From NCBI GenBank assembly GCA_036009085.1, contig DASYMM010000615.1:1-36786 (forward strand): a stretch of 36,786 nucleotides of DNA. The letters run 5' to 3'. The translations under genes were made by a program, and so were the position numbers. Position 1 is the first letter of the stretch. The number at the start of each line of letters is the position of its first letter. The notes under the pieces are model-generated. The model worked only from the letters and a program-made list of their open reading frames with translations, was not told the DNA's origin and did not search any database. This document shows positions 4,672 to 36,786 of the stretch, piece after piece. The DNA is from Pyrinomonadaceae bacterium (GTDB lineage: Bacteria; Acidobacteriota; Blastocatellia; Pyrinomonadales; Pyrinomonadaceae).

Positions 4672-4682
4672 CCAAAAGCACT

Positions 4683-4784
4683 CACCGCAGAGGCGCAGAG
4701 CCAAACCGCAGAGGGGGCGCAGAGAATTAAGTTTCTCTGCGCCCCTTCTGCGTGATCTCTGCGTCTCTGCGGTGAAGGTTTTAT
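4683..4784. terminator. Long palindrome of the CGCAGAG family between convergent genes; plausible bidirectional intrinsic terminator
   Basis: Left arm caccgcagaggcgcagag...ccgcagagggggcgcagagaa (4683-4726), loop ttaag, right arm ttctctgcgccccttctgcg...ctctgcgtctctgcggtg (4733-4774). Outer 18 nt pair with 1 mismatch. Flanked by aaaag (4674-4678) and ttttatt (4778-4784), so a short U-run follows the stem on either strand. Confidence 0.55.
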
Positions 4785-11138: not shown

Positions 11139-11235
11139 AAAAGCGAAAGACATGAACCACGAAATGACACGAAACAACGCGAAAAATTTTTAGCGTGTCT
11201 TCGTGTGAGTTCGTGGTTTTGCTTTTCATGCTTTT
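11139..11235. repeat. Imperfect palindrome of the CACGAAA family, copy a
   Basis: Core aaccacgaaatgacacgaaacaacgc (11155-11180) pairs with gcgtgtcttcgtgtgagttcgtggtt (11193-11218). It shares extended left-flank similarity (TAGAAC ... AAAAGC ... AACCACGAAAT) with the copy at 14412-14530. Lies between the PBP stop and the SEDS gene start. Confidence 0.8.
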
Positions 11236-13254: not shown

Positions 13255-13262
13255 ATTTTTAA

Positions 13263-13395
13263 GTGACGAGTGACGAGTAACGAGTTGAAGACAAGATCAA
13301 GTTTTCCTTTAACCTTTCAGTTAATCTCTCTGTGACGAGCGAAAGACAAGTTTTTTTGTTTTAACTTGTCACTCGTCACCTGTCACTCGTCACTG
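13263..13395. repeat. GTGACNA-family heptamer-arm palindrome, copy 1
   Basis: Plus-strand arm gtgacgagtgacgagtaacgag (13263-13284). Inner hairpin gtgacgagcgaaagacaagtt / aacttgtcactcgtcac. Terminal arm ctgtcactcgtcactg ends at 13395. The TGA stop of the FHA gene (13390-13392) lies inside the terminal CAGTGAC. Confidence 0.9.
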
Positions 13396-14238
13396 CTTTT
13401 TGAATCTGACCTCGACATCGCCGAAGCCGACGACATCGCCGTCTTCGAGTTGGCGCGCTTCGCCGTAATTGATGCGCCTGCCGTTTATATAAGTTCCGTT
13501 TACCGAACCTGTGTCGGAAACGAGCAAAGTTCCTTCGCGGTTCATCAAAATCGCGGCGTGAATCTTCGAGACGCTCGGATGCGCGAGCGACAGATCGCAA
13601 TCCGTCGCTCGCCCGACGCTCAGGCGTCTGCCGCCCGGTTTGAAGTAGAGCGTCTGGTCTTCCGCCTCCTTGCCGATTTGGATGCGCGCGTGCACCGCTG
13701 TATTTTTCGCCGCCGCTGCTCCGAGAGACGACGAAGGCACGGCTCCTGCCGCTGCTTCTCCCGCCGCCGCACGCGCGCGCTCCTCATCCTCGCGCTGCAA
13801 CTCCTCTTCAAACTCGCCGAAGCTCGGATCGACCGCAATGCCCGTCGTGAAAATATCTACGAGCGTTTCCACTTCGACGGGCGCGAGCGTACGCAGGCGT
13901 TGGTCGTTGATGTGATCGATGGCGGCGGCCAGCACTTCGTTCTCCAACTCCCTGACCGATTCCGGCGGAGCCTCGGAATGAGTGCCCCACTCGACCTTGA
14001 GTTTCATCACGTGCGGCGCGATGCGCCCGCGCTTCGGGTCGTTGCGCACGCGTTCGTCAATCAAACGGTTCATGCGTTCGATCAGGCGCGTCGTCGTAAA
14101 ACCGCTCTGCGGTTCGAGTGTGCGACCGAGCGAACGGTCAACCACCGCGCCGACGCGATCCAGCACGCGCCTGAGCAGTCGCTCGGCCAGAGCTTCGTCG
14201 CGCTTCGGCACGCCCTCTTTTTTCTCTGTCTTGTCCAT
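13390..14238 (-). CDS. FHA-domain protein (second FhaA-like paralogue, first gene of the minus-strand cluster)
   Basis: C-terminal FHA core LSVGRATDCDLSLAHPSVSKIHAAILMNREGTLLVSDTGSVNGTYINGRRI. The N-terminal domain is similar in layout to the 5153-6007 product. Confidence 0.82.
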   Translation of the reverse strand: MDKTEKKEGVPKRDEALAERLLRRVLDRVGAVVDRSLGRTLEPQSGFTTTRLIERMNRLIDERVRNDPKRGRIAPHVMKLKVEWGTHSEAPPESVRELENEVLAAAIDHINDQRLRTLAPVEVETLVDIFTTGIAVDPSFGEFEEELQREDEERARAAAGEAAAGAVPSSSLGAAAAKNTAVHARIQIGKEAEDQTLYFKPGGRRLSVGRATDCDLSLAHPSVSKIHAAILMNREGTLLVSDTGSVNGTYINGRRINYGEARQLEDGDVVGFGDVEVRFKKQ

Positions 14239-14444
14239 GCGAATCTATACGCCCACACGCCGACGAGGTTCAGTCAACGTCTAACTGCTCAGAGTAAACT
14301 ACGCACGCAAAAGTTGCGCGCCGCGGGGGAGGGAATTGTAAATATTTTCGGGCGCGGACTATTTTAAGGGGAAAAGGGGAAAAGTAAAAAGGGGAAAGCT
14401 CGAAGCCGCCGTTTAGAACCGTTCTTATACAGAAAAAGCCAGAA

Positions 14445-14530
14445 AGGCGAAACCACGAAATCACACGAAGCAACACGAAAACGGACTAAATTTGTTTCGT
14501 GGCGTTTCGGGTAATTTCGTGGTTTCGCCT
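14445..14530. repeat. Imperfect palindrome of the CACGAAA family, copy b; possible terminator of the TrmH-family gene
   Basis: aggcgaaaccacgaaatcacacgaagcaacacgaaa (14445-14480) pairs with tttcgtggcgtttcgggtaatttcgtggtttcgcct (14495-14530). The outer 17 nt pair perfectly. On the minus strand a TTTTT run (14433-14437) follows the stem. Confidence 0.8.
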
Positions 14531-14565
14531 CTCTCGCTCCGATGTCGTTTGTTCCAACTTCCGCG

Positions 14566-15941: not shown

Positions 15942-15956
15942 ACGCCGAACTTGTTC

Positions 15957-16976
15957 TTAACCGACGGGCGCGGGCGCGATCACTTCATGGATGGCGCGCA
16001 CCTCCGTCACGAGTTGTTCGTACTGTTCGAGCGTGAGCGCTTGCGCGCCGTCCGAGAGCGCGCGTTCCGGTTGGTCGTGCACTTCGATGATCAGACCGTC
16101 TGCTCCGGTGGCGACCCCGGCGCGCGCGAGCGGCGTGACCATGTAATTCTTGCCCGTGCCGTGCGAGGGGTCTATGACGACGGGGAGATGCGAGAGGCGG
16201 CGCACGGCGGGGATGGCCGCGAGGTCGAGCGTGTTGCGCGTGTGCTGCGCGAAGGTGCGTATGCCGCGTTCGCACAGGACGACGTTGTAGTTGCCCTCGG
16301 CCATGATGTACTCGGCGGCGAGCAGCCATTCGTCGAGCGTGGCGGCGAGCCCGCGTTTGAGCAGGACGGGCAAGGGCGAGCGTCCCGCGCGTTTGAGCAG
16401 CGAGAAGTTTTGCATGTTGCGCGCGCCGAGTTGGATCACGTCGCCGTAGCGTTCGACGAGGTCAACGCCGTGTTCGTCCAACGCTTCGGTCACGATCTTC
16501 AACCCGTAGGCTTCGCGCACGTCGGCGAGAATCTTCAAGCCCTCTTCGCCGAGTCCCTGAAAAGCGTAGGGCGAGGTGCGCGGTTTGTACGCGCCGCCGC
16601 GAAAGAAACGCGCGCCGCTGCGGCGGACGGTTTCGGCAATGGCAAACGCCTGCGCGCGGCTTTCGATGGCGCAAGGCCCGGCGATGAGCGCGAGTTCATC
16701 GCCGCCGATGGCCGCATCGCCGACGCGCACCACCGTCTTCTCCGGTTTCAAATCGAGCGAGATCAGCTTATAGGGCTTCGTGACGCGAATCGCTTCGGCC
16801 ACGCCCGACATCGTTTCAAAGCGCGTGGCATCAACCGCGCCCTGATTGCCCGTCACGCCGATGGCCGTGCGATTCGCTCCCGGCAGCGGGTGCGCCCTCA
16901 ATCCAAGTTCCGACACGACGCGGACAACTTCTGCGACATCGTGCTCCGTCGCGTCGGCTTTCATCACAATCAGCAT
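15957..16976 (-). CDS. aroF: 3-deoxy-7-phosphoheptulonate (DAHP) synthase, type I-beta with N-terminal ferredoxin-like regulatory domain
   Basis: [14 protein letters not shown] (regulatory domain), [37 protein letters not shown] at 16976 preceded by GGAG. Confidence 0.88.
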
Positions 16977-16990
16977 AAGAAATCTCCAAA

Positions 16991-17206
16991 GTGACAATAA
17001 AACAGTGACGAGTGACAGGTGACGAGTGACGAGTTAAAGAAAAGATTTCAGCCACTTGATCCTTCAAGGTCTTCTTTGCGTCTGTGCGCCTTTGCGTGAG
17101 AATAGTTTTTCACGCAAAGGCGCACAGACGCAAAGAAAGACAGGAAGAAGTTTTGCCACGCACACTGAGTTTAAACTCGTCACTCGTCACTTGTCACTCG
17201 TCACTG
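16991..17206. repeat. GTGACNA-family palindrome, copy 2, composite: outer arms flank a nested TTTGCGC-family hairpin
   Basis: Outer arms are cagtgacgagtgacaggtgacgagtgacgagtt (17003-17035, with an extra gtgacaa at 16991) and aaactcgtcactcgtcacttgtcactcgtcactg (17173-17206). Confidence 0.9.
17072..17137. repeat. Perfect 27-28 bp hairpin of the TTTGCGC family, nested in the loop of the element above
   Basis: tctttgcgtctgtgcgcctttgcgtga (17073-17099) is the exact reverse complement of tcacgcaaaggcgcacagacgcaaaga (17110-17136). Loop is gaatagtttt. Confidence 0.92.
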
Positions 17207-17209
17207 TCT

Positions 17210-19282
17210 TCACATTCTTTCGGGAACCGAGATGCCGAGCACAGAGAGCGCGGCGGTTAGTTGGCGACGTGCAAGGTCGGCGATGTTGACGAGCACGGCG
17301 CGGCGCGTTTCGTTCTCTTCGGCGATGATGCGGTGGCGGTGGTAGAAGAGGTTGAAAGCCTTCGCGAGTTGGAAAGTGTATTTTGCCAGATAGGCGGGTT
17401 CGGCTTGCGTCGCGGCCACGGCGACGGTTTCGTCCAGACGCGCCGCGAGCGTGACGAGCGACCACAGTTCGTCGCCCGTCTCGCCCGTTAAAATCTGCCG
17501 GACTTCTTCCGCGCCCGTCTCCGTCTCATTCAACTTCAAAGCGAAGTCGCGCGCACGCTCGAACGTCGCCTCGTCCAGCTTGCGGAAGATTGAGTTGGCG
17601 CGCACGGCTGCATACTGGCAATAAGGGCCGGTTTCGCCCTCGAACGAAAGAGCCTCTTTGAAATCGAAAGCGATGAGCGAATTGCGCGTCCACTTCAAGA
17701 GAAAGTAGCGGAGCGCGCCCGTGGCAATCGTGTGCGCCGTCTCAAGCTTTTCGGCGGCGGTCAGTTCGGCGTGGCGCGATTCAACCTCGCGCAGCGCGTT
17801 TGCTTCCAGACGATCAATGAGGTCGTCAACTTTAACGCCCAGACCTTTGCGCCCGCTCATCTCGATGTGCGGGCGGGCGCGGTCTTCCGGCGTCAACTCG
17901 AAGCCCAACTCTTCCGATGCAGCGGGCGACAACGCGACCATCTCATAGGAGAGATGCACGCTCGGCTCGCGCGCGAGTCCGGGCACGACGGCCTGCACGC
18001 CGCGCTGCACGATGTCCTGCGTGTACGACTGGCGCGAATCAATCACGTTATAGACGACGCTCCCGCCGCCGAACCTCGGCGGCTGATTCGCCACCATCGC
18101 TTCGGCGGTGGGCGGCGAAGAGGTCGTCACCCAGACGGTGTGGCCGTCGTCGTATTGCTGAAACGGCTTGTAGTAGAAATCGAGTCCGAGTTCGCCGAGC
18201 TTCCAGAGTTGATAGGCGATGTCTTTGCCCGCGTAAGTGACCGTGCCGTTCGAGCGGACGATGATCTTGTCTGCGTCGTGCTCGTCGGTTCCGGTGTGCG
18301 CGTCGGAAGGCATCACCCAGCAGCCTGCGTTGCGGCCTTCGGTCTCGAAGCGAATCGTGCCGGTCTCTTTGAGCCGCGTGAAGGCTTGATCCCAGAAATG
18401 CAGGTGGAGGATTTCGGATTCGCGCGGCAACACGTCGTAGCGTATGCCGAGCCGCGCCATCGTCTTCAAGTGGCACTGGACGATGCGCGTGGCGACGTAA
18501 TCGGCGAGTTCCGCCGTCGGGTTCGCGCCCGCTTCGACGGCGTGCAGCGTCTCGCTACGCAGTTTCAAAAGCTCCGGGTCTTCTTTGGCCTCGGCGTCGC
18601 CGTGGCGATAGAAGAGTCCGACACTCGCGTACAAATCCCAACAGTAATAATCGAACGGACGCTCGGGCGGGAGCGACTCGTCCAGACGGCGCACATCTTC
18701 GAGCGTCATGCGTTCGATGTGCATGAAGCCGACGACGACATCAGCGACCTGCACGCCCGTGTTGTCAATATAATTTTGCACTTCGACCGGCGCGCCCGTC
18801 GCGCGCAGCACGCGCACGAAGGTATCGCCGAGCACGGCGTTGCGCATGTGTCCGATGTGCGCCGCCTTGTTCGGATTGATGTTCGTGTGCTCGACGATGA
18901 CTTTCGACTTCTCGCCCGCGCCCGTCGCGTCGGCCTGTTGGTGTTCGAGACTTGCGTTCGAGGCGGCGACGAGGTGTTGCAAACTTTTGGCGCGATCATA
19001 AAAGACGTTGAGATAGCCCGCGCCCGCCACTTCGACGCGCGCCACGCCCTCTTCCGCTTCGAGCGCGGCCTTCAACGCTTCGGCGATGGCGCGCGGGTTG
19101 GCGCGCTCCCCGCGCTCCTGTTTGAGTCGCTTCGCCACCTCGAAGGCGACGGGGAAGGCTATGTCGCCGAGTTCGGTGCGCGGCGGTATCTCGCCGTTAA
19201 CGGTCGGAAACGAAACGAACTTCTCTTCAATCGTGCGCTGCACGCGCGCGCTCAATCTTTGTTGCAATTCAAGCAGATTCAA
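17210..19282 (-). CDS. argS: Arginine--tRNA ligase (long form, 690 aa)
   Basis: HIGH-type motif NKAAHIGHMRN. C-terminal DALR-type anticodon-binding region ending in the family-typical ...PERM. Apparent TTG start at 19282. Confidence 0.9.
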   Translation of the reverse strand: MNLLELQQRLSARVQRTIEEKFVSFPTVNGEIPPRTELGDIAFPVAFEVAKRLKQERGERANPRAIAEALKAALEAEEGVARVEVAGAGYLNVFYDRAKSLQHLVAASNASLEHQQADATGAGEKSKVIVEHTNINPNKAAHIGHMRNAVLGDTFVRVLRATGAPVEVQNYIDNTGVQVADVVVGFMHIERMTLEDVRRLDESLPPERPFDYYCWDLYASVGLFYRHGDAEAKEDPELLKLRSETLHAVEAGANPTAELADYVATRIVQCHLKTMARLGIRYDVLPRESEILHLHFWDQAFTRLKETGTIRFETEGRNAGCWVMPSDAHTGTDEHDADKIIVRSNGTVTYAGKDIAYQLWKLGELGLDFYYKPFQQYDDGHTVWVTTSSPPTAEAMVANQPPRFGGGSVVYNVIDSRQSYTQDIVQRGVQAVVPGLAREPSVHLSYEMVALSPAASEELGFELTPEDRARPHIEMSGRKGLGVKVDDLIDRLEANALREVESRHAELTAAEKLETAHTIATGALRYFLLKWTRNSLIAFDFKEALSFEGETGPYCQYAAVRANSIFRKLDEATFERARDFALKLNETETGAEEVRQILTGETGDELWSLVTLAARLDETVAVAATQAEPAYLAKYTFQLAKAFNLFYHRHRIIAEENETRRAVLVNIADLARRQLTAALSVLGISVPERM

Positions 19283-22105: not shown

Positions 22106-24295
22106 ATGAAAACTTTTTACGTCACGACGCCGATTTATTACGCCAACAGTTTGCCGCATCTGGGTCACCTCTACACGACGATGGTGGCCGATTGCGTGGC
22201 GCGCTACCGGCGACAGCGCGGCTATGAAACCTATTTCCTGACCGGCACGGACGAGCACGGCATCAACGTCCAACGCGCCGCCGCGCGCAGCGGGCGCACG
22301 CCGAAAGAGCACGTGGATTATATCGTCGGCGAGTTGAAGCAGAGCTTCGCCGCCTTCGGACTCGACGGCGAGCACGGCGGCTACGACATCTTCATGCGCA
22401 CGACCGAGCCTTTTCATTATGAAGCCGTCGCAGAGTTCTGGCGTCGGGTCGCGCGCGGCACCACGCCGAAAGGGCGCGAGGCGATCTACAAAGGCCACTA
22501 CGAAGGCTGGTTCTGCGCGCCGTGCGCGACGTTCAAGACGGAGGACGAATACGCGAAGCCGGAACGCGAAGGCGACCCGCCGCTCTGCCTGATCCACGAA
22601 GCCCCGCTCGACCGCGTGGCGGAAGAGAGCTATTTCTTCCGTCTCTCCGATTACGGAGAAGCGTTGCTCGCGCTCTACGAGTCGCGGCCTGATTTCGTGC
22701 GCCCCGAGGCGCGTCGCAACGAGGTCGTCAGTTTTGTGACGCGCGGCTTGCAAGACTTATCCGTGAGTCGTCTGAAAACTTCCGTCAGTTGGGCGATCCC
22801 CGTGCCGGACGACCCGGCGCACACGATCTACATCTGGCTCGACGCGCTCTCGAACTACATCACCGCACTCGGCTGGGGAAGCGCGGAAGGCTTGCGCGAA
22901 AACATCTTCGATAAATTCTGGCCGGGCGTCCACCTGATCGGCAAAGACATCCTGCGCCAGCACGCGATCTACTGGCCTGCGTTTCTCATGGCTGCCGGAA
23001 TCGAACAGCCGCGCGCCGTCATCGCGCACGGGACGTGGCTCGATCATCTGGGGCGCAAGATGTCGAAGACGCTCGGCAACTCGATTGACTTGCCCACGCT
23101 GCGTCGCCATTTCGCGCCCGACATCGTGCGCTACTTTTCCCTGCGCGAGATGGCCTTCGGGCAGGACAGCAAGTTCGGTTACGAAGCCCTCATTGATCGC
23201 TCGAACAGCGATTTAGCGAGCGGCCTCGGCAATCTATCGAGCCGCACCTTGACGATGATCGGGCGTTACTGCGACGGGCTGACGCCTGCGCCCGACATCC
23301 CGGAAGAGAAACGCTTGCAGGCCAAGCGCGCGGGCGTTGATGCGGACGGCGGGGAACTCGCCAGCGCGCTCGAACACGCGCGCGATTCCTTCATACAGCA
23401 TTTCGAGGATTATGCTTTCGGGCGCGCGCTCGAAACGGTCTGGACGGTCATCGCACGCGCCGACAAGATGATCTCGGACGCGAAGCCCTGGGAGCTAGCG
23501 AAAGATGAGACGCAGCGGCAGACCTTGAACGCCGTCCTCTATCGCGCCGCCGAAACGCTGCGCTGGCTCGCCGTCCTGCTCCATCCCGCGATGCCCGATG
23601 CGACGCGCGCCATCTGGCAGCAACTAGGGCAGACGGACGACATCACGAAACACGATCCGGCAAAACTTCGATGGGGAGGTCTTCGAGCGGGCGAGCGCAT
23701 CGGCGAAGTTGCGCCCGTCTTCCCGCGCATAGATAAAGCAAAAATTATGGCTGAGATAGAAAAAGAGAACGAAGCGAAACAGGCCGCGCAGGCTGAAACC
23801 ACGGCGACGCAAGCCGGAACACACGCGACCGAAGCCGACGCCGCGCCCGGTTCGGCACACGCTGCCGAGACGACGACGCCACCGCCGCAACGCGGCGCGA
23901 CCGAAGGCGATGCCGCGCCCGCCACGCAACAAAATGCGCCCGGAGGCCCTGAAGGTATTGTCACTTTGATCGGCATCGAGGATTTCGTCAAAGTCGAAAT
24001 GCGCGTCGGGGAGATACTGACCGCCGAGCGCATCCCGAAGTCGGACAAACTGCTGCGCTTCACGATTGACCTCGGCGAAGCCGCGCCGCGACAGGTGCTC
24101 GCCGGAATCGCCGAATACTACGAACCCGACGCGCTCGTCGGTCGCAAGATCATCGTGGTGTCGAATCTGAAACCGCGCAAACTTCGTGGCTTTGAATCTC
24201 AGGGCATGGTGCTCGCCGCCTCCATCGGCGACGAAGGCCGCCCCGTCCTCGCCACCTTCAACGAAGACGTGCCGAACGGAGCGCGCTTGAAATAG
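22106..24295 (+). CDS. metG: Methionine--tRNA ligase with C-terminal tRNA-binding (Trbp111/EMAP-like) domain
   Basis: MKTFYVTTPIYYANSLPHLGHLYT (HIGH motif) and KMSKTLGN (KMSKS motif). C-terminal FVKVEMRVGEILTAERIPKSDKLLRFTIDLG. Start at ATG 22106 rather than the ORF-track start at 22049. Confidence 0.92.
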   Translation: MKTFYVTTPIYYANSLPHLGHLYTTMVADCVARYRRQRGYETYFLTGTDEHGINVQRAAARSGRTPKEHVDYIVGELKQSFAAFGLDGEHGGYDIFMRTTEPFHYEAVAEFWRRVARGTTPKGREAIYKGHYEGWFCAPCATFKTEDEYAKPEREGDPPLCLIHEAPLDRVAEESYFFRLSDYGEALLALYESRPDFVRPEARRNEVVSFVTRGLQDLSVSRLKTSVSWAIPVPDDPAHTIYIWLDALSNYITALGWGSAEGLRENIFDKFWPGVHLIGKDILRQHAIYWPAFLMAAGIEQPRAVIAHGTWLDHLGRKMSKTLGNSIDLPTLRRHFAPDIVRYFSLREMAFGQDSKFGYEALIDRSNSDLASGLGNLSSRTLTMIGRYCDGLTPAPDIPEEKRLQAKRAGVDADGGELASALEHARDSFIQHFEDYAFGRALETVWTVIARADKMISDAKPWELAKDETQRQTLNAVLYRAAETLRWLAVLLHPAMPDATRAIWQQLGQTDDITKHDPAKLRWGGLRAGERIGEVAPVFPRIDKAKIMAEIEKENEAKQAAQAETTATQAGTHATEADAAPGSAHAAETTTPPPQRGATEGDAAPATQQNAPGGPEGIVTLIGIEDFVKVEMRVGEILTAERIPKSDKLLRFTIDLGEAAPRQVLAGIAEYYEPDALVGRKIIVVSNLKPRKLRGFESQGMVLAASIGDEGRPVLATFNEDVPNGARLK

Positions 24296-24410
24296 TGACA
24301 AGTGACGAGTGACAAGTGACGAGTGACAAGTGACAAGTTAAAAAGAAAACTTGTTCTTAAATTTATCTTCAACTCGTCACTTGTCACTCGTCACTCGTCA
24401 CTTGTCACTG
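24295..24410. repeat. GTGACNA-family palindrome, copy 3
   Basis: Six left heptamers (gtgacaa gtgacga gtgacaa gtgacga gtgacaa gtgacaa, 24295-24336). Inner mini-hairpin acaagtt/aacttgt. Right arm aactcgtcacttgtcactcgtcactcgtcacttgtcactg (24371-24410). Confidence 0.92.
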
Positions 24411-24417
24411 CCTTCTT

Positions 24418-25215
24418 ATGTTTATTGATTCACACGCGCACATTGACGGGGCGGAGTTTGATGCGGATCGCGACGAGGTGGTGGCGCGTGCGCGCGAGGC
24501 CGGGGTCGTGGCGATCTTGAACGTGGGGACGGGCGACCCGCACGGCGGCGAGTTGGAGCGTGCGGTCGCCGTGGCCGAACGTTACGAAGGCGTGTATGCG
24601 GCGGTTGGCGTGCACCCGCACGATGCGCGTCTGTTTGACGAGCGCGCGGCGGAGCGTGTCTATGAACTTGCGCAAAGTAGCGAGCGCGTCGTCGCGTGGG
24701 GCGAGATCGGGCTGGATTATCATTACGACAACTCGCCGCGCGAGGTGCAACGCGAAGTCTTCGCACGACAGTTGCGCCTCGCGCGCGAGTTGAACTTGCC
24801 TTGCATCATTCACTCGCGCGAGGCGGACGCGGACACGGTTGCGACGCTGCGCGCGGAGTGGGACGGCGCGACGCGGGGCGGCATCATGCACTGTTTCGGC
24901 GGCGGTTGGGAGATGGCCGCGAGCGTGTTGGAATTGGGATTTATGATTTCGTTCGCGGGCAACGTGACGTTTAAGAAGGCCGAAGCCTTGCGCGACGTGG
25001 CGCGGCGCGTGCCGCTCGAACGCATGTTGATCGAGACGGATTGCCCTTTTCACACGCCCGTCCCTTTTCGCGGGCGGCGCAACGAACCGGCGCGCGTCGT
25101 CGAAACCGCACGCCACCTGGCGGAATTGCGCGGCGTCGAGCTCGCGGAGTTTGGCCGGATCACGACGGGCAACTTTCAACGCTTCTTCAATCTTCCCTCA
25201 ACTGCCATCACTTAA
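24418..25215 (+). CDS. TatD-family metal-dependent hydrolase
   Basis: Motifs MFIDSHAHID, GEIGLDYHY, IIHSREA, ETDCPF. Confidence 0.88.
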   Translation: MFIDSHAHIDGAEFDADRDEVVARAREAGVVAILNVGTGDPHGGELERAVAVAERYEGVYAAVGVHPHDARLFDERAAERVYELAQSSERVVAWGEIGLDYHYDNSPREVQREVFARQLRLARELNLPCIIHSREADADTVATLRAEWDGATRGGIMHCFGGGWEMAASVLELGFMISFAGNVTFKKAEALRDVARRVPLERMLIETDCPFHTPVPFRGRRNEPARVVETARHLAELRGVELAEFGRITTGNFQRFFNLPSTAIT

Positions 25216-25217
25216 TC

Positions 25218-25326
25218 TTCTCTGCGCCCCCGCTGCCGCTTTGCTCTCTGCGTCTCTGCGGTGAGCGATAGTTGATCAATCGTTCACCGCAGAGACACGG
25301 AGAACTCGCGGAGGAAGCGCAGAGAG
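25218..25326. repeat. Palindrome of the CGCAGAG family, copy b (arms in opposite order to the 4683 copy)
   Basis: ctctgcgccc...ctctctgcgtctctgcggtga (left arm), loop gcgatagttgatcaatcg, ttcaccgcagagacacggagaactcgcggaggaagcgcagagag (right arm). Starts 2 nt after the tatD stop. Confidence 0.8.
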
Positions 25327-25403
25327 TTAAGCTGACACTGGAACGCTTACTTGCCACTGCGCAACTTTTACTGCTTGGTCGTTAATGTTATAAATGCTGC
25401 GGC

Positions 25404-25461
25404 GTGAAAGTGACTATGTTTTGCTTTTAACTCGTCACCCGTCACTTGTCACCCGTCACTG
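25404..25461. repeat. GTGACNA-family element, copy 4, asymmetric (2 left units, 4 right units)
   Basis: gtgaaagtgac (25404-25414) and aactcgtcacccgtcacttgtcacccgtcactg (25429-25461). It ends 7 nt before the yajQ ATG. Confidence 0.75.
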
Positions 25462-25468
25462 TTCTCTT

Positions 25469-25966
25469 ATGGCACAACAAAATTCATTCGATATTGTCTC
25501 GCAGGTTGACCGCGCGGAGATCACGAACGCGCTCGATCAGACGATGAAAGAAGTGCGGCAGCGTTTCGACTTCAAGGGCAGCGCCGCCGCCGTCGTGTTG
25601 GAGAAGGAAGAACTCATCCTCACCGCCGAGGACGAGACGAAACTGCGCAACATGAACGATATCTTGCAGCAGAAACTCGTGCGGCGCAGCGTGCCGCTCA
25701 AGGCTTTCAGCTACGGCAAAATCGAGCCGGCGCTCGGCGGCACGGTGCGCCAGCACGTCGCGATTCAACAGGGCATCCCGACCGAGAAGGCGAAAGAGAT
25801 CGTCCGCTTCATCAAGGACTCGAAGGCGAAGGTGCAAGCCTCGATTCAGGGCGATGTCGTGCGCGTCACGGGCAAAGACCGCGACACGCTGCAAGACATC
25901 ATCGCCAAACTTAAAGCCAAAGATTTCAACATCAACATGCAGTACACCAACTATAGAAGCAACTGA
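25469..25966 (+). CDS. yajQ: YajQ-family nucleotide (c-di-GMP)-binding protein, UPF0234
   Basis: MAQQNSFDIVSQVDRAEITNALDQTMKEVRQRFDFKGS is a typical YajQ N-terminus, and the approx 165 aa length fits the family. Confidence 0.85.
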   Translation: MAQQNSFDIVSQVDRAEITNALDQTMKEVRQRFDFKGSAAAVVLEKEELILTAEDETKLRNMNDILQQKLVRRSVPLKAFSYGKIEPALGGTVRQHVAIQQGIPTEKAKEIVRFIKDSKAKVQASIQGDVVRVTGKDRDTLQDIIAKLKAKDFNINMQYTNYRSN

Positions 25967-25973
25967 TGGATAA

Positions 25974-26125
25974 GTGACGAGTGACGAGCGACAAGTGACG
26001 AGGAAAAGACGTAAATCGTGAATCGTACATCGTCGATAGAGTTAAAACTGCTTTCCTCTATTTGCGATTTACGATTCACGATTCGCTTGTCTTCACCCGT
26101 CACCCGTCACTGGTCACTCGTCACT
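25974..26125. repeat. GTGACNA-family palindrome, copy 5, composite with nested TTNACGA-family hairpin (26010-26086)
   Basis: Outer left arm gtgacga gtgacga gcgacaa gtgacga (25974-26001). Outer right arm cttgtcttcacccgtcacccgtcactggtcactcgtcact (26086-26125). Inner hairpin cgtaaatcgtgaatcgtacatcgtcgatagag / ctctatttgcgatttacgattcacgattcgc. Confidence 0.88.
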
Positions 26126-27153: not shown

Positions 27154-27216
27154 AACGACAAGCCGGAACGATGAGAAAGAGGAGCGAATATTGAACAACT
27201 CTATGCGGTTCTTATT

Positions 27217-27244
27217 CATCCCTCATCCCTCATCTCTCATCCCT
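27217..27244. repeat. Tandem heptamer tract (CATCCCT)x4, single-armed, ending 7 nt before the next start codon
   Basis: catccct catccct catctct catccct at 27217-27244. Only a weak possible partner (gatgagaaagaggag, approx 27169-27183). Confidence 0.8.
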
Positions 27245-29633: not shown

Positions 29634-29742
29634 TACAATCCCACGCGTTCCCAACAGCTATCGAACTTGCGGACAAAACGGGACTTCCAGACGTAAGCGA
29701 CAAATCGCACACACGCGAGCGACGGATCGCTACAGCTGCGAG

Positions 29743-29790
29743 CGATAAATTGCTCGATAAATTGCTCGATAAACTGCGCTATAAATTACG
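29743..29790. repeat. Tandem 12-nt repeat x4, AT-rich, 33 nt upstream of the kinase-gene ATG
   Basis: cgataaattgct cgataaattgct cgataaactgcg ctataaattacg at 29743-29790. Confidence 0.9.
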
Positions 29791-29822
29791 CTTGGCGTCT
29801 CTCCGCACCGCGTCAAACATCC

Positions 29823-30945: not shown

Positions 30946-32313
30946 ATGTCAACTGAAAAACTTGATCAAGAAGAACAGTCGGCGGCGGAAGTTAAAAGTT
31001 TGCCGCAGGTTTACATCAATCAACTGTCGGCGCACGTGGGCGAAGAAGTGACCTTGCGCGGGTGGCTCTACAATCTGCGTTCGAGCGGCAAACTCCTGTT
31101 TCCGCAACTGCGCGACGGCACGGGGATCGTGCAATGCGTGGTCTTCAAAAAGGGCGTCTCGGAAGAACTGTGGGACGCGCTCAAGAATCTCGGACAGGAA
31201 TCCGCGCTCACGATTCGCGGCACGGTGCGCGCGGACGAACGCGCGCCGGGCGGGTACGAAATTGATGTGGTCAGCGCGGAAGTGTTGCAGGCGGTCGAGG
31301 GCTACCCGATCACGCCGAAGGAGCACGGCACGGAGTTTTTGATGGATCACCGGCACGTCTGGCTGCGCTCGCGCCGCCAGCACGCGATCCTCAAAGTGCG
31401 TCATACGGTCGTGCGCGCCGTGCGCGATTTTCTCGATAACGACAACTTCACGCTCGCCGATTCGCCCATCCTGACGCCCGCCGCCTGCGAAGGCACGACG
31501 ACGCTCTTTGAAGTTGACTACTTCAACGACGAGAAAGCGTACCTGACGCAATCCGGCCAACTCTACAATGAAGCGACCGCCGCCGCTTTCGGTAAATCCT
31601 ATTGCTTCGGCCCCACCTTTCGCGCCGAGCGTTCTAAGACGCGTCGCCATCTCACGGAGTTCTGGATGGTCGAACCGGAGATGGCCTTCGCACATCTCGA
31701 CGACGTGATGAATCTGGCCGAGCGTTTCCTCGCCAGCATCGCCGCGCGCGTGCTGGATGAGAGGCAGGAAGAGTTGAAGGTGCTGGAACGCGACACGTCG
31801 AAACTCGAACTCATCGTGCCGCCGTTCCCGCGTCTGCATTACGACGACGCCGTGAAGATGCTCCACGAAGGTTACGAGCGGAAAGAACTCGAAACGAAGT
31901 TTGAATGGGGCGGCGACTTCGGCGCGCCTGATGAGACGTACATCTCGAAGCAGTTCGAGAAGCCTGTGATGGTGCATCGTTACCCGGCGGCGATCAAAGC
32001 CTTCTACATGGCGCGCGACCCGGAGCGCGATGATCTGGCTCTGGGCGTGGACGTGCTGGCCTCGGAAGGGTATGGCGAAGTGATCGGCGGCGGCGAGCGC
32101 GCCACCTCGCTCGAATTCCTCGAAGCGCAGATCAAAGCGCACGACCTGCCGCGCGAGGCTTTCGAGTGGTATCTGGATTTGCGTCGCTACGGCAGCGTGC
32201 CGCACGCGGGCTTCGGCATGGGCATCGAACGCTGCACCGCCTGGATGTGCGGCATCGAGCACGTCCGCGAAACGATCCCGTTTCCGCGCATGCTCTATCG
32301 CCTCCGACCCTAA
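30946..32313 (+). CDS. asnS: Asparagine--tRNA ligase
   Basis: Class IIb signature [29 protein letters not shown]-terminal [10 protein letters not shown]-terminal OB fold. RBS GAAGGT. Confidence 0.9.
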
Positions 32314-32316
32314 AAG

Positions 32317-32415
32317 CAGTGATGAGTGACAAGTGACAAGTTAAAAACTAAGAACTAGGAATTAAAAACTTGTCTTGATTCTGGCTCGTCACTTGTCACT
32401 CGTCACTTGTCACTG
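32317..32415. repeat. GTGACNA-family palindrome, copy 6
   Basis: cagtgatgagtgacaagtgacaagtt (32317-32342). Inner pairing gacaagtt/aacttgtc. Right arm ctcgtcacttgtcactcgtcacttgtcactg ends at 32415. Confidence 0.9.
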
Positions 32416-32422
32416 ATTTCTT

Positions 32423-32974
32423 ATGAGTAGTACACAGGAACGCATCGTAACGATTTTCGGCGGCTCGAAGTGCGGGGAGGACTGCGCGGAGTATGCGGAG
32501 GCGCGGCGCGCGGGGCAGCTTTTGGCCGAGGCGGGTTTTACGATCTGCACGGGCGGATACCTGGGCGTGATGGAAGCGGCGAGCCGGGGCGCGCACGAAC
32601 GCGGCGGGCGCGTGCTCGGCATCGTGATGAACCAGTTTAAGAAAGAGCCGAACCGTTTTCTGACGGACAAAGTTGCGACGCCGCATTTTTACGACCGCCT
32701 GCAACACTTGATCGTGCGCTCGGTCGGCTTCATCGCGCTGCGCGGCGGGATGGGCACGGTGACGGAGCTTTCACTCGTCTGGAACAAAATTCAAACGCGC
32801 GTTATCGAACCGCGCCCGCTCGTCCTGTTGGGCGATTGCTGGCCGCCCGTCATAAAGGCGTGGCGCAAGCATTTGATCGTGAGCGAGGAAGACGTGCGGA
32901 TGCTCGATCTGGCAGAGACGCCGGAGGAAGCTGTCAGGATCATCATCGAAAAGTCGAAAGGAGTCAGTGTATGA
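32423..32974 (+). CDS. LOG-family / TIGR00725-like (SLOG-fold) protein
   Basis: IVTIFGGS...ICTGGYLGVMEAASRGA...ALRGGMGTVTELSLVW (PGGxGTxxE-like motif). Confidence 0.78.
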   Translation: MSSTQERIVTIFGGSKCGEDCAEYAEARRAGQLLAEAGFTICTGGYLGVMEAASRGAHERGGRVLGIVMNQFKKEPNRFLTDKVATPHFYDRLQHLIVRSVGFIALRGGMGTVTELSLVWNKIQTRVIEPRPLVLLGDCWPPVIKAWRKHLIVSEEDVRMLDLAETPEEAVRIIIEKSKGVSV

Positions 32975-33909
32975 ATTGTCCGGGTTGCGGCGCACCTGTG
33001 ATCAGCGGGGCGCAGTTTTGTGGAGCGTGTGGAACGCGCATGACGCCGGGGACGCCCCCGCCCGCGTCGAATGTGTCGGGCGGAGGTGCGTGGGGCGGAG
33101 GTGCGGCGAGCGAAGGAACGACTGGTGGCGGTGGCATTGGTGGCAGCGGTCACGGCATCCATATCGACGCAGATTCGCGCGGGCAGGGGCGCGGCTACAG
33201 TTTTGAAATTTTGCACCAGCCGTCGTTTGCGCTCGCGGTGGTTCAGTTGCAGGCGGAACAGTCTATCCTCGCGGAAGCGGGCGCGATGGTTTCGATGTCT
33301 GCGAACGTCGAGTTGCAATCGCAGATGAAGGGCGGTCTGATGGGCGCGTTGAAGCGCGCGGTGGGCGGCGAGTCGGCCTTCGTCTCGACGTTTACGGCGC
33401 GGGGCGGCGCGGGCGAAGTCACGTTTGCGCCGGGCGCGCCGGGCGACATCGCGGCGATTGACATGAATAATCAGATGTTCATGGTGCAGTCGAGCTCGTA
33501 TCTGGCGGGCGACGCGAGTTTGACGGTTGACACGAAATGGGGCGGGGCGAAAACTTTCTTTGGCGGCGAGGGCTTGTTCGTCATGCAAGTTTCAGGGACG
33601 GGCTTGTTGCTGCTCACCTCTTTCGGCGCGATTCACCGGCGGACGCTCAAACCGGGCGAACGCTACGTGGTGGACACGGGGCATCTCGTGGCGTGGGAAG
33701 CCTCGATGCAATATTCTCTACGCAAGGCCGCGTCCGGTTTCTTCCGCACGATGGTTAGCGGCGAAGGCATCGTGGCGGAGTTTGCAGGCCCCGGCGAACT
33801 GTTGATTCAGACGCGAAACCTCGCGGCCTTCGCCGGACTATTGAAGCCTTTCTTCCCGTCGCAGGGCAGCGGCGGCGGCAGCGGCTTCAACCTCAATCTC
33901 GGCGGGTGA
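32971..33909 (+). CDS. AIM24/TIGR00266 (DUF124) family protein with N-terminal zinc ribbon and Gly-rich linker
   Basis: The ATG overlaps the LOG-gene stop (ATGA). MNCPGCGAPVISGAQFCGACG (CxxC...CxxC). Core AEAGAMVSMSANVELQSQMKGGLMGALKRAVGGESAFVSTF...GEGLFVMQVSGTG...HLVAWE is typical of the family. Confidence 0.78.
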   Translation: MNCPGCGAPVISGAQFCGACGTRMTPGTPPPASNVSGGGAWGGGAASEGTTGGGGIGGSGHGIHIDADSRGQGRGYSFEILHQPSFALAVVQLQAEQSILAEAGAMVSMSANVELQSQMKGGLMGALKRAVGGESAFVSTFTARGGAGEVTFAPGAPGDIAAIDMNNQMFMVQSSSYLAGDASLTVDTKWGGAKTFFGGEGLFVMQVSGTGLLLLTSFGAIHRRTLKPGERYVVDTGHLVAWEASMQYSLRKAASGFFRTMVSGEGIVAEFAGPGELLIQTRNLAAFAGLLKPFFPSQGSGGGSGFNLNLGG

Positions 33910-34903: not shown

Positions 34904-35039
34904 CAGTGACGAGTGACAGGTGACGAGTGACGAGCAAGAATCAAGACAAGTTTTAAGATAGGTTATCTTCTTCTCCAACTTGTCACTCGTCACCTGTCAC
35001 TTGTTAGTGTTTTAACTCGTCACTCGTCACTTGTCACTG
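34904..35039. repeat. GTGACNA-family palindrome, copy 7 (one left arm, two right arms)
   Basis: cagtgacgagtgacaggtgacgagtgacgag (34904-34934). Inner pairing gacaagtt/aacttgtc. Right arms aacttgtcactcgtcacctgtcacttgt and ttaactcgtcactcgtcacttgtcactg (ends 35039). Starts immediately after the arginase TAA. Confidence 0.9.
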
Positions 35040-35061: not shown

Positions 35062-36198
35062 TTGAAGAGAAAAATCAGAGTCGGGGTGATTTTCGGGGGG
35101 CGTTCGGGCGAGCATGAGGTGTCGTTGCGTTCGGGGCAGGCGGTGATTGAGGCTATCGATCACGGAAAGTATGAAGTGATTCCGCTGGCGATTACGAAGA
35201 CGGGGGAGTGGTTGTCGCCAGCCGCCGCGATGGCTCTGCTGCCGCATGCGACGACCGGGTTGCTGTCGCGCGGGATGAGCGAGAACAGGGAAGCGTTGAC
35301 CATCGTGGGCGACCCTTCGCGCTCCGGTCTCGTCGCCGTGGGCAGCGACGGCGAGCGGTCTTCCTCGTCGCTGCCCGTTGACGTGGTCTTTCCCGTGCTG
35401 CACGGGACGTACGGCGAGGACGGCACGATTCAAGGTCTTTTCGAGATGGCCGATGTGCCTTATGTCGGGTGCGGCGTGCTCGCTTCGTCGTGTGGGATGG
35501 ACAAGGTGGCGATGAAGATTTTGTTCCGCGACGCGGGGCTTCCGATCTGCAAGCACCTCTGGTTTCTGCGCTCGGAGTGGGAGCGCGCGGGCGCGTCTAT
35601 CCTGCGTCGCGTGGCGCGCGAGATCGGATTTCCTTGCTTCGTCAAGCCTGCGAATCTGGGTTCGTCCGTCGGCATCTCGAAAGCGACAGACCGCCGCACG
35701 CTCGAAGCGGCGATCAACCTCGCCGCGCGTTATGATCGCAAGATCATCGTCGAAGAGGGACTCGACGCGCGCGAGATCGAGTGCGCCGTGATTGGCAACG
35801 ACGACCCGGAAGCGAGCCTGCCCGGCGAATACATCGTGCACGACCAGCAGGGCGCGTTTCTCGATTACACGGAGAAGTACAGCAACACAGGCCACGTCGA
35901 GTTCGTCGTGCCCGCGCCTATCTCGAAATCTCTAACCGCGCGCATCCGGCGCATGTCAATCGCCGCCTTCAAAGCCATAGACGGGACGGGACTCGCCCGC
36001 GTGGATTTTTTCCTCCGCCGCGACACAAACGAACTGCTCATCAACGAACTCAACACCAATCCCGGCTTAACAGATGTTTCCGGCTACCCCAAAATGTGGG
36101 CGGCCTCCGGCCTCTCCTTCCCCCAAGTCATAGACCGTCTCATCCAACTCGCCCTCGAACGACACAAAGACAAATCGCGCAACGAAACGAGTCTTTGA
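35062..36198 (+). CDS. ddl: D-alanine--D-alanine ligase
   Basis: [22 protein letters not shown] and the C-terminal ATP-grasp motif [17 protein letters not shown] start preceded by GGAGTAAGGG. Confidence 0.9.
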
Positions 36199-36201
36199 GA
36201 A

Positions 36202-36327
36202 CAGTGACGAGTGACAGGTGACAAGAGAAGGCAAGTAAATCGTGAATAGAGAAAACTCGCTTTCTTCTATTGACGATTTACGACTCACGCTTCACGGCTT
36301 TTTCTCGTCACTTGTCACTCGTCACTG
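36202..36327. repeat. GTGACNA-family palindrome, copy 8, composite with nested TTNACGA-family hairpin (36235-36296), between convergent genes
   Basis: cagtgacgagtgacaggtgacaag (36202-36225). Inner hairpin gtaaatcgtgaatagag / ttctattgacgatttac. Right arm ctcgtcacttgtcactcgtcactg (36304-36327). The TGA stop of the minus-strand gene (36322-36324) lies inside the terminus. Confidence 0.9.
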
Positions 36328-36786
36328 TCCTTCCGGCATTACTTCGCCGTTCCATTCGTATTGGGCGGCGACCATGAGCGGGAGGAGGCGTTTGTAGTAG
36401 CGCATGACGTAGGCGAGGTAGCCGCCGGCGAAAATTAGTTGGAGCAGGGCGAAGAGGACGTGCCAGCCGCGCGTGAGAAAGAAGTTCGGCCACTGGTGAA
36501 TCGTGAGCGCGACGCCCGCGCTGAACACCACGGTCATCGGCATCAGGAAGCGCACGTTGGTAATTTGCTCGCGCTCGACGACGACGAGTAGAGCCTGCGC
36601 CGCCTCTTTGTTCAGTTCTTCGAGCCTGCGACGGATCATGCGTAAGTCCACGGCAAACAATATCCAGATGATGCACCCGTAGACCGCGCTCAGAGCGAAC
36701 CAGTAAACCGGGCTTTCGAGTTGAGTGAAGATGATCACTTCGAGCATGGTGCTGGCGATGTAGAGAAAGTTGTGCGGAAACTCAAG
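36322..36786 (-). CDS. Hypothetical integral membrane protein, C-terminal part (frame open to the window edge)
   Basis: Hydrophobic segments (VYWFALSAVYGCIIWILFAV, MTVVFSAGVALTI, VLFALLQLIFAGGYLAYV). The frame stays open for 13 codons upstream of the first Met to base 36786, so the 5-prime end may be truncated by the window. Confidence 0.55.
   Translation of the reverse strand, partial: LEFPHNFLYIASTMLEVIIFTQLESPVYWFALSAVYGCIIWILFAVDLRMIRRRLEELNKEAAQALLVVVEREQITNVRFLMPMTVVFSAGVALTIHQWPNFFLTRGWHVLFALLQLIFAGGYLAYVMRYYKRLLPLMVAAQYEWNGEVMPEGQ

Follow-up and report, generated by a model that had tools for sequence, protein, structure and literature searches.

Palindromic repeats with heptamer arms fill the interval between stop and start codons at gene junctions of Pyrinomonadaceae

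The closest described objects to the elements considered here are the hairpin-forming heptamer arrays of cyanobacteria, the short tandemly repeated repetitive (STRR) sequences, which have been known since about 1990 and include units such as CCCCAGT, TTGGTCA and CAACAGT. STRRs consist of 7-bp tandem units, form arrays capable of folding into hairpins and are dispersed over intergenic and intercistronic regions, for example in the hupS-hupL spacer of Nostoc, Anabaena and Lyngbya, and in all of this they resemble the repeats described below. The 7-bp repeat hairpins between hupS and hupL were suggested to act in transcript stability or translational coupling, and the function of STRRs is listed as unknown (PMC2670836). 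Here we analyze a stretch of 36,786 nucleotides (the whole of it is called the window below) from a Pyrinomonadaceae bacterium of the phylum Acidobacteriota (assembly GCA_036009085.1, contig DASYMM010000615.1, positions 1 to 36,786), and in particular a palindromic element at 24293-24410 on the forward strand, between metG and tatD, whose two arms are inverted tandem arrays of an AGTGAC(G/A) heptamer.

Several other kinds of dispersed repeats share individual features with this element. Repetitive extragenic palindromic sequences (REPs) and the bacterial interspersed mosaic elements (BIMEs) built from them are likewise high-copy extragenic palindromes that lie within operons, after stop codons, and REPs are targeted by nested insertions, such as those of IS1397 into REP loops. 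A REP is a single palindrome of 20-40 bp with a GTAG or CGTC head and is linked to RAYT transposases (PMC3733652). As far as the work of Liang et al. is summarized in PMC12306157, about half of the E. coli REPs counted there are found no more than 15 nt from a stop codon, where they affect translation of the upstream gene. Mycobacterial interspersed repetitive units (MIRUs) are dispersed repeats at the cistron borders of operons with coupling of the downstream gene preserved: they insert at start codons yet stay coupled, which minimizes the impact of the insertion (PMC12548453). The TAACTGA repeats of marine Beggiatoaceae, Cyanobacteria and Bacteroidetes are stop-bearing heptamers in arrays of 2-6 repeats with a patchy distribution over phyla; they adjoin start codons and overlap the ends of open reading frames (ORFs) (PMC4679880). 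Finally, known cases of translational coupling resemble the junctions described here in having starts that lack a Shine-Dalgarno (SD) sequence near a stop codon and starts masked by structure that the upstream ribosome opens (PMC12548453). In known reinitiation, however, the stop and the start overlap or are separated by a very short linear distance, and a hairpin that spans 100-200 nt between them is not described.

The element between metG and tatD fills the junction almost completely. The last base of the metG stop codon TAG (24293-24295), G24295, is at the same time the first base of the first GTGAC. The left arm (24294-24338) contains six AGTGAC(A/G) units and the right arm (24372-24409) five; the arms are 92-97% complementary, they enclose an A/T-rich center, and G24410 closes the stem. 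The stem is followed by exactly 7 nt, the pyrimidine spacer CCTTCTT (24411-24417), in which no SD is present, and by the ATG of tatD (24418-24420). The junction thus reads TAG-TGAC-AAGTGACGAGTGACAAGTGACGAGTGACAAGTGACAAGTT...AACTCGTCACTTGTCACTCGTCACTCGTCACTTGTCACTG, then CCTTCTT, then ATG. RNA of positions 24286-24425 is predicted to fold with -69.5 kcal/mol, compared to -28.0 +/- 3.1 kcal/mol for shuffled sequences (z = -13.4). Inverted arrays of AGTGAC(G/A) heptamers are present eight times in the window, in which GTGACNA is found 63 times versus 14.5 +/- 3.2 times in shuffles. For each of these, Tandem Repeats Finder reports a period of 7, with 2.4-6.4 copies in either arm. Folding of the junctions, which an earlier note on this DNA had proposed as a check, likewise predicts long stems for every one of the eight, with energies of -22 to -136 kcal/mol and 25-48 paired positions. 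The curated covariance models of Rfam, run over the whole window at gathering thresholds, gave no matches.

The remaining seven elements are placed in a comparable manner. The element at 32317-32415 of the forward strand is separated by AAG from the TAA of asnS (32311-32313) and by ATTTCTT from the ATG of a LOG-family gene at 32423. Upstream of yajQ there is a half element (25404-25461, forward strand), which consists of a right array of four units and a short GTGAAAGTGAC partner; its terminal GTCACTG, which ends at 25461, is followed by TTCTCTT and the yajQ ATG at 25469. Downstream of the same gene a composite element (25973-26125, forward strand) leads to an ispB-like gene: the yajQ TGA (25964-25966) is followed by 7 nt, by the stretch 25974-26125, by 8 nt and by the ATG at 26134, and the outer arms of GTGACGA units enclose an inner palindrome of CGT(A/G)AAT units at 26003-26094. 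On the minus strand, the element at 13262-13394 lies between a gene for an FHA protein, whose TGA (13390-13392) is within the first heptamer, and the PBP2 gene, with 8 nt from the GTGAC at 13263 to the ATG at 13254. Also on the minus strand, the element at 16990-17210 is located between argS (TGA 17210-17212) and the DAHP synthase gene aroF (ATG 16976); here the argS TGA, 3 nt and the element are followed by 26 nt that contain a GGAG 9 nt upstream of the aroF ATG, and a palindrome of CTTTGCG units is nested within the element at 17072-17137. The element at 34904-35039 of the forward strand, in which the right arm is duplicated, starts 0 nt after the TAA of the arginase gene and is followed by 22 nt with a GGAG and by the TTG start of ddl at 35062. 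The last element, a composite at 36202-36326 with GTGAC outer arms and CGTAAAT-type inner arms (about 36228-36296), lies between convergent genes, because a minus-strand gene occupies 36322-36786; this gene was placed by a codon-model gene caller and is called with 296 amino acids in two relatives (L198 and L204). Both ends of this composite are flanked by stop codons: the ddl TGA is at 36196-36198, and the TGA of the minus-strand gene (36322-36324), which is within the right terminus, is the TGA of the element's own terminal heptamer. All stop, spacer and start coordinates that the earlier note had given for these junctions proved exact on re-reading.

The genes that border the elements, and their starts, are backed by protein profiles. 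NCBIfam and Pfam models identify PBP2, the FHA protein, DAHP synthase, ArgS, MetG, TatD, YajQ, a polyprenyl synthase, AsnS, the LOG/TIGR00730 protein, AIM24, arginase and Ddl in the window. Position 1 of the TatD profile aligns to residue 2 of the protein, position 2 of the YajQ profile to the third residue after the ATG at 25469, and position 1 of the DAHP synthase profile to the methionine encoded at 16976.

The arrangement is not a peculiarity of one contig. When one genome per species was scanned with CAGTGACRAGTGACRNGTGAC, at least 116 stretches from other genomes were obtained, and the counts that follow were obtained on these listed loci, 855 kb taken in 8-kb blocks, together with the window. 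They contain at least 98 paired hairpins and at least 69 unpaired arrays. The outward sequence after the last GTCAC follows a consensus of T (96%), G (81%), Y, T, Y and T (69%), which is the same on stop-facing and start-facing ends whatever the neighboring gene is, and both ends of the elements are conserved, the left one as AAARCA and the right one as TGYTTT. An ATG is found 5-10 nt beyond GTCAC at 56 of 224 termini versus 67 of 764 control CACTG sites; the preferred distances are 7 and 9 nt past the core, which correspond to 5 and 7 nt after CACTG. A flush ATG without an SD, typically in the form TG-YTTTCTT-ATG, follows 38 of the 90 start-facing ends, while at another 22 the T-rich end runs into GGAG or GGAGG with the start 5-8 nt further on. 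For 32 of the 38 flush SD-less starts, the upstream gene's stop codon is no more than 12 nt away from the opposite end of the element.

The stop side is less regular. The stop lies between -18 and +12 nt of the array in 80 of 95 cases; in 37 of the 95 the ORF ends at the TGA of heptamer 1, 2 or 3, and most of the others end 0-12 nt upstream. Because the period is 7, a TGA is present in all three frames within three units. Measured from the stem base, the position of the stop ranges from -19 to +28 nt, and the "fixed geometry" attributed to these junctions in the earlier note therefore describes the tight start side well and the stop side, which is spread over about 30 nt, badly. Its proposal that the stop and the start are adjacent across the stem stands: at 33 flush co-directional junctions the two are 98 nt apart in linear distance (median; range 56-231 nt), while across the predicted helix a median of 7 unpaired nt (interquartile range 5-10) lies between them, if the stem forms in vivo.

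The elements are also concentrated in particular spacers. What is left of the spacer outside the element does not exceed 25 nt at 53% of the co-directional element junctions, while gaps of up to 25 nt hold only 0.7% of the element-free co-directional intergenic nucleotides. Junctions with an element comprise 77 co-directional, 7 convergent and 5 divergent ones, compared to 424, 66 and 66 without an element (Fisher p = 0.04). Thus, the elements are enriched in co-directional strings but also present elsewhere; convergent junctions show no enrichment (7.9% vs a background of 12%). The observation is real, non-random and general beyond the window.

Orthologous junctions show that the occupant changes more readily than the fact of occupation. 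At metG>tatD junctions of TatD-anchored metagenome loci (no more than 75% amino-acid identity), hairpins of like architecture are built from different repeat units: AGTAGMC (L118), GCAGTAG (L124), AGAAGTC (L120), GGCACAAA (L136, L147), GGATTTACAAG... (L143, L144), CAAAG-type (L134, L135), ATCATTT (L117) and TTGAGTCA-type (L194), and at least nine unit types were counted by hand at these distant junctions. In metG>tatD spacers of up to 231 nt that hold a hairpin, the outermost pair is within about 5 nt of the stop, and on the other side it overlaps the start or is no more than about 5 nt away from it, with the exception of L120 (12 nt). At metG>tatD, spacers without a hairpin measure 2, 2, 4, 12, 18, 20, 21 and 27 nt; those at yajQ>ispB measure 0-28 nt. 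Closer to the window are six syntenic Pyrinomonadaceae loci (L197, L198, L200, L201, L204 and L205), with an identity of 0.72-0.80 to the window at four-fold sites. Nearly all of these relatives have an occupant at the six hairpin-bearing junctions, though from differing families, and by hand count about 33 of 35 junction instances in the fetched relatives are occupied. The metG>tatD junction holds GTGACRA in the window, CAGTTGT in L197, GGGTAAA/GGGGAAG in L200 and L204, and a GTGAC composite of 345 nt in L205; between ddl and the convergent gene downstream of it, the GTGAC plus CGTAAAT composite of the window is replaced by GGGATGA in L198 and L204. Three junctions are uncolonized in all fetched relatives, AIM24>arginase (27-31 nt, with GGAG), APH>asnS (with an AGAAGG SD) and NTP>APH, and the spacers of these three contain a conserved SD or promoter-like, non-repeat sequence.

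Nesting can be followed in the same manner. In L069 a GTGAC hairpin has a palindrome of CGT(A/G)AAT units exactly at its apex, and the orthologous hairpins in L104 and L100 lack this palindrome. At yajQ>ispB four relatives (L197, L201, L204, L205) have GTGAC only, the window has the composite, L200 has the inner element alone with a TGACAGG remnant, and L198 has a decayed half array of 27 nt. Copies at unrelated sites are related as well: window positions 32318-32425 share 84% identity over 109 nt with a copy in L104, another metagenome-assembled genome (MAG), that is not orthologous, and L041 also contains the inner sequence of the composite found at 36202 in the window, so that asymmetric inner sequence is common to non-orthologous copies in different genomes. 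No gene is found between inverted arrays in the at least 116 loci, and no target-site direct repeats are visible at the flanks of the elements, which are mutually complementary, the left one being A-rich and the right one T-rich; the close relatives obtained offer no empty site of a GTGAC copy. Judging from these sequences, the elements may be described as non-autonomous palindromic repeat families that spread, nest at apexes and decay.

The hosts of the listed matches are mostly Pyrinomonadaceae MAGs; copies are also present in the complete Pyrinomonadaceae chromosome OY970256.1 (6.27 Mb). The others belong to Terriglobia, Verrucomicrobiota, Planctomycetota, Latescibacterota, Ignavibacteria, Bacteroidales, Nitrospirota, Chloroflexota and further phyla. 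Among the matches listed, loci of the Pyrinomonadaceae type have 84 paired and 25 solo arrays, and those of other phyla 10 and 32. YajQ homologues that are 93-98% identical to that of the window are named as Pyrinomonadaceae, which places the window in this family. A look-up of the exact TatD protein of the window returned no record, and the fetched loci, whose best nucleotide matches to the window are about 75-87% identical, do not include its source genome. Direct arrays can be considerably longer than the arms seen in the window: an Ignavibacteria MAG (L040, 6961-7161) has 29 copies of GTGACGA/GTGACCA, and arrays of 7-8 copies are present in Verrucomicrobia, Burkholderiales and Opitutaceae MAGs (L037, 65-111; L052, 1404-1450; L076, 6054-6107), with an ATG 5 nt after the end of the L037 array. 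GTGAC(G/A)A arrays are also carried by 26 viral contigs of IMG/VR (L206-L231), mostly as solo forward arrays that follow a stop and precede an SD or ATG (for example in L218, L221 and L226); one viral contig, L227, has a full hairpin. Three loci of CAZTUB01, labelled 'uncultured Clostridia' (L015, L035, L054), have 58-60% GC, typical paired GTGAC elements and flush ATGs, and their Clostridia label or binning may be wrong.

We consider it probable, though by no means assured, that the elements are dispersed, nested palindromic repeats with a fast turnover, comparable to STRRs, REPs or MIRUs, and tolerated at cistron borders since the hairpin keeps the stop and the start adjacent. The element between metG and tatD is one copy of a large non-coding palindromic repeat family of the Pyrinomonadaceae; its members have two inverted arrays of 2-6 AGTGAC(G/A) heptamers with an A/T-rich center, and the family has sister families of like architecture made of other 7-9-nt units. 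Dispersal, nesting and the sharing of subfamilies suggest that the elements are mobile or otherwise self-propagating. Copies insert into each other's apex, are replaced quickly and persist almost only in very short co-directional spacers, and their fixed appearance could be the result of three constraints: the ancestral spacers were only 0-28 nt long, copies that split an SD from its start or break an ORF would be purged by selection, and the TGA present in all frames ends a clipped ORF within three units. In the mRNA the stem of 30-45 bp would loop out the inserted 100-200 nt, so that the stop and the start would stay about 7 nt apart. A ribosome at the stop would melt the first 10 bp or so of the stem and free the adjacent SD-less start, and at no other moment would a start located 5-7 nt behind the stem be accessible. 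Coupling from before the insertion would survive because the melted stem base exposes the start. By analogy, we propose that the hairpin would do here what a small ORF does in MIRUs. In this view the elements are tolerated on account of the bridging geometry, which would not be a device evolved to create coupling. The hairpin-bridged reinitiation put forward in the earlier note is thus retained in part: the bridging geometry is real, but a dedicated device is neither needed nor favored by the tests that were run.

Some of these tests concern the RNA. In the 77 co-directional GTGAC elements, mismatches in the sense-strand stem are A.C in 204 cases and G.U in 154 (p = 0.0095), an excess opposite to what is expected under selection on an mRNA stem. 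The variable position of the heptamer shows the combinations GC 64, AT 68, AC 37 and GT 20, and the arms match there in 70% of units, where about 50% would be expected if they were independent. The mismatch pattern fits an origin of the palindromes at the DNA level, followed by drift. In the sense strand of the same 77 elements, the 5' arm favors GTGACAA and the 3' arm TCGTCAC. At least five T residues in the 8 nt after the stem are found at 75 of 223 termini (34%), and a scan for consensus promoters and terminators, which is uninformative for such long stems, did not flag the elements as terminators. Three of the seven promoter-like matches in that scan fall in elements only because GTGACA resembles TTGACA, and the possibility of a mobile promoter that faces outward was set aside on this ground. 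Likewise, a similarity of the arms to the 3' region of 16S rRNA was judged to be numerology and given no weight. A promoter of the leaderless type at the flush ATGs is unlikely, as the region from -12 to -7 is CACTGC.

The start of yajQ is instructive with regard to coupling. A promoter-like block, CAACTTTTAC-N9-GTTAATGTTATAAATGCTGCGGCG, at 25362-25404 of the forward strand is conserved in all six close relatives, and a related motif, ACTTTCACATGC...TTGATGTTATTCTC, is seen in distant lineages. We infer from this conservation that the block is probably the yajQ promoter and that the half element would thus be located in the yajQ 5' untranslated region (5'UTR). With the half element downstream of the promoter-like block, the SD-less start of yajQ would have no upstream ORF to couple to; if the block is indeed the promoter, starts of this kind, which lack an SD and are preceded by an array, can function with no ORF upstream of them. 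By inspection, the hairpin-free starts of NTP, APH and yajQ in L197, L198, L204 and L205 also appear to be SD-less and similar to CTT-ATG, and SD-less initiation does not seem to be tied to the hairpins. Gene calls in element-free genes are too noisy for a comparison of the general TCTT-ATG context; the syntenic block suggests that CTT-ATG is common.

Other explanations assign the stem a function. One of them, which we regard as doubtful and which takes up the processing or insulation site offered as an alternative in the earlier note, is that the elements punctuate the RNA at cistron borders as an RNase III site, a barrier to 3' exonucleases, a partial terminator or a translational insulator, and thereby uncouple the stability or expression of neighboring genes in long co-directional strings. 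RNase III acts on double-stranded RNA of about 20 bp or more, and the stems predicted here, with 25-45 bp of near-perfect duplex, reach this length. The stems begin 0-12 nt after stops, a position at which REPs (those within 15 nt of a stop) stall ribosomes and lower the expression of the upstream gene according to Liang 2015, as cited in PMC12306157, and for which cistron insulation by structure was proposed according to Chemla 2020, as cited in PMC12548453. The pyrimidine- or T-rich tails on both ends resemble those of a bidirectional terminator, the hairpin at 25218-25331 (after the tatD stop and before the promoter-like block) is where a terminator would be expected, and hairpins of any sequence are kept at the same junctions. 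However, two thirds of the termini lack the T-rich stretch counted above (only 34% of 223 have it), full termination would silence promoterless downstream genes in the very co-directional strings in which the elements are enriched, convergent junctions show no enrichment, five copies lie in divergent, start-to-start regions, and the sense strand shows no tolerance of G.U pairs. An alternative function is that of a selected cis-acting device, by which the ribosome is handed over the helix to an SD-less AUG 5-7 nt past the stem or the start is strictly unmasked; this we hold to be unlikely. Such a device has in its favor the proximity of stops to the opposite ends of elements at 32 of 38 flush SD-less starts, the median of 7 unpaired nt between stop and start across the helix, the sharp spacing of starts at 5 and 7 nt after CACTG, the occupancy of junctions that is kept while sequence turns over, and the consideration that a start 5-7 nt behind a stem of -45 to -135 kcal/mol would be closed to a free 30S subunit unless the base were opened; the idea was raised before for the cyanobacterial STRR hairpins (PMC2670836). 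It does not sit well with the copies at 7 convergent and 5 divergent junctions and in the yajQ 5'UTR, with the normal SD that follows the element at 22 of 90 start sides, with stops whose distance to the stem base varies between -19 and +28 nt, with A.C mismatches that outnumber G.U, or with the SD-less appearance of hairpin-free NTP, APH and yajQ starts. In E. coli, structure right after the stop lowers coupling (PMC12548453), and different families or nested composites at the same junction in relatives are the behavior of mobile or selfish repeats.

A further idea, which seems to us quite unlikely, is that a hairpin of any sequence serves as an initiation part at hundreds of Pyrinomonadaceae junctions, the stem bringing the terminating ribosome, or its own melted base, onto an SD-less AUG. 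The last turn of the stem, 5-7 nt before the AUG, would take the place on the 30S platform that is normally held by the SD:anti-SD helix and so act in cis as a mimic of the SD helix. If true, it would turn the families of heptamer arms into interchangeable parts under selection and would explain occupancy accompanied by sequence turnover. We give the least weight to the explanation in which the elements are a by-product of events on DNA, either breaks in palindromes or cruciforms, to both ends of which heptamer repeats would be added from a template during healing, or sites for DNA-binding or repair factors; this appears very improbable. It would account for symmetric arms with variable numbers of units and variable centers, for the clean replacement of one unit family by another flush with the same boundaries, for a variable position matched in only 70% of units with no RNA-strand signature, and for the failure to find a target-site duplication or a transposase. 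The occurrence of the heptamer as solo direct arrays in many phyla and phage contigs, and the dominance of period 7 in the unrelated STRR, TAACTGA and Geobacter heptamers, are in line with it too. Yet identical asymmetric inner sequence at non-orthologous loci arises more easily by copying of whole elements, composites with a defined apex insertion look like insertions, and the scheme is entirely speculative and comes without a candidate enzyme.

The explanation that we prefer, tolerated repeats with a fast turnover, has difficulties of its own. Neither a transposase nor a target-site duplication nor an autonomous parent element was found in the 855 kb of loci. The six junctions that are occupied in nearly all relatives could equally well reflect selection for any stable hairpin, and their near-complete occupancy despite sequence turnover is the strongest argument for a selected, structure-dependent function; the same pattern fits a succession by apex-targeted insertion as well. 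Full replacement of a family with no outer remnant, as between the window and L200 at metG>tatD, needs a fast and symmetric loss of arms, which has to be assumed. That the GTGACRA unit is conserved in different genomes, in several phyla and in phage contigs may point to a factor acting in trans, or a function, that is conserved as well. Lastly, the SD-less start of yajQ need not be coupled, and preserved coupling is therefore not required for expression.

With respect to described classes of repeats, the elements are nearest to STRRs, with which they share period-7 units and a high copy number (8 copies in the 36.8 kb of the window, and at least 98 paired copies in the window and the listed loci taken together). 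The STRR unit sequences named at the beginning are not matched, as the unit here is AGTGAC(G/A) and the host belongs to Acidobacteriota. The Nostoc unit TTGTCAG (PMC2408588) matches TTGTCAC of the present elements at 6 of 7 positions. Unlike STRRs, which differ in phylum and units, the elements described here belong to many co-existing families with nesting and replacement. No report of such nesting and replacement, of the stop-to-start fill or of arrays with TGA in three frames was found for STRRs in the literature consulted. REPs and BIMEs were rejected as a class, since the present elements are 60-215 nt long and have arms of tandem heptamers and an (A)AARCA-GTGAC head; no RAYT gene was seen in the 8-kb blocks of the listed loci. 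MIRUs are direct repeats with a small ORF that overlaps its neighbors at -4 nt, whereas the elements contain no ORF, and an internal ORF of the MIRU kind was rejected from the sequence. TAACTGA arrays are direct, with one inverted case reported, whereas Pyrinomonadaceae have inverted arrays in pairs as a rule; solo arrays, as found in other phyla and in phage contigs, are closer to TAACTGA. Terminal inverted repeats, a length of 50-500 bp and the lack of coding capacity agree with miniature inverted-repeat transposable elements, but the target-site duplication expected of these is not seen, the flanks being complementary and not direct repeats, and no autonomous insertion sequence with the same termini was found in the 855 kb. 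Intrinsic terminators were rejected in view of the U-tract present at only 34% of termini and the lack of enrichment at convergent junctions. Integron attC sites have RYYYAAC...GTTRRRY core sites and belong to variable promoterless cassettes near intI; this class was rejected as well, since the elements end in CAGTGAC...GTCACTG and flank the housekeeping genes metG, argS, asnS and ddl in conserved synteny. The statement of the earlier note that no described element has such a geometry was too strong, considering STRRs between hupS and hupL, REPs near stops and MIRUs at starts. Nevertheless, no description of such elements in Acidobacteria was found in the literature consulted, and the quantified stop-to-start fill and the nesting and replacement of multiple families at fixed junctions appear to be new.

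The window contains hairpins of other families as well. An 8-mer hairpin with TCTCTGCG units at 25218-25331 of the forward strand follows directly after the tatD stop (25213-25215), a second copy of a CTCTGCG-unit hairpin at 4675-4782 starts 3 nt after the stop of the gene at 3397-4671, and a degenerate GGGATGA/TCATCCC hairpin at 27165-27243 of the forward strand ends 8 nt before an ATG at 27252. Besides GTGAC, at least five hairpin families are represented: CTCTGCG 8-mers, CACGAAA 7-mers, GGGATGA/TCATCCC, CTTTGCG and CGT(A/G)AAT. Further hairpins with tandem-repeat arms are located at 11155-11218 and 14437-14538, and by hand count about 13 of about 31 gene junctions of the window have a hairpin with such arms. 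Many of the units or heads in the window and in L118, L121, L124, L197 and L200 contain CAGT or AGT (AAAGCAGTGAC, AAAGCAGTAAATCG, GCAGTAG, CAGTAGA, TCAGTTG). The motif is also present in the Nostoc unit TTGTCAGT and in TAACTGA when this is read as its reverse complement. The STRR units CCCCAGT and CAACAGT likewise hold CAGT or AGT. This common motif could be a shared recognition site or a coincidence.

Other observations in the window concern spacers and gene calls. The spacer between the NTP-transferase and APH genes (29634-29822) starts with TACAATCC, which is kept in all relatives and in distant lineages; repeats added in the window only are a 23-nt unit at 29696-29754 and a 12-nt unit, CGATAAATTGCT, at 29743-29787. 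Start calls of AIM24 vary (32975-33040 in the window; L197, L198, L204 and L205), which gives spacers of 0, 23 or 65 nt to the LOG gene, and an N-terminal zinc-ribbon segment is included in some AIM24 calls and not in others. Spurious long ORFs start within elements, for example at 13366-14367 and 15951-16994 on the forward strand and at 32396-32707 on the minus strand, because the CTTGTCAC units contain TTG and the right arm is free of stops.

The investigation of these elements places a system related to STRRs, and a very abundant one, in a second and poorly studied phylum, where about one in three to four junctions of the window is occupied. For annotation, this means that gene calling is affected, since ORFs run into arrays and the TTG codons in the arms give false starts, and that operon prediction and metagenome assembly in soil Acidobacteria are affected as well. 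For the elements themselves, the analysis provides a quantified rule, a hairpin that extends from the stop codon to the ribosome-binding site or start and has arms with stops in all three frames, and an evolutionary pattern of apex nesting and family replacement at fixed junctions. It also provides alternatives that can be tested, namely, tolerated selfish DNA, a coupling device and RNA punctuation. In this way, the old question of the role of STRR-like repeats is made experimentally tractable, with tolerated selfish DNA as its most probable answer.

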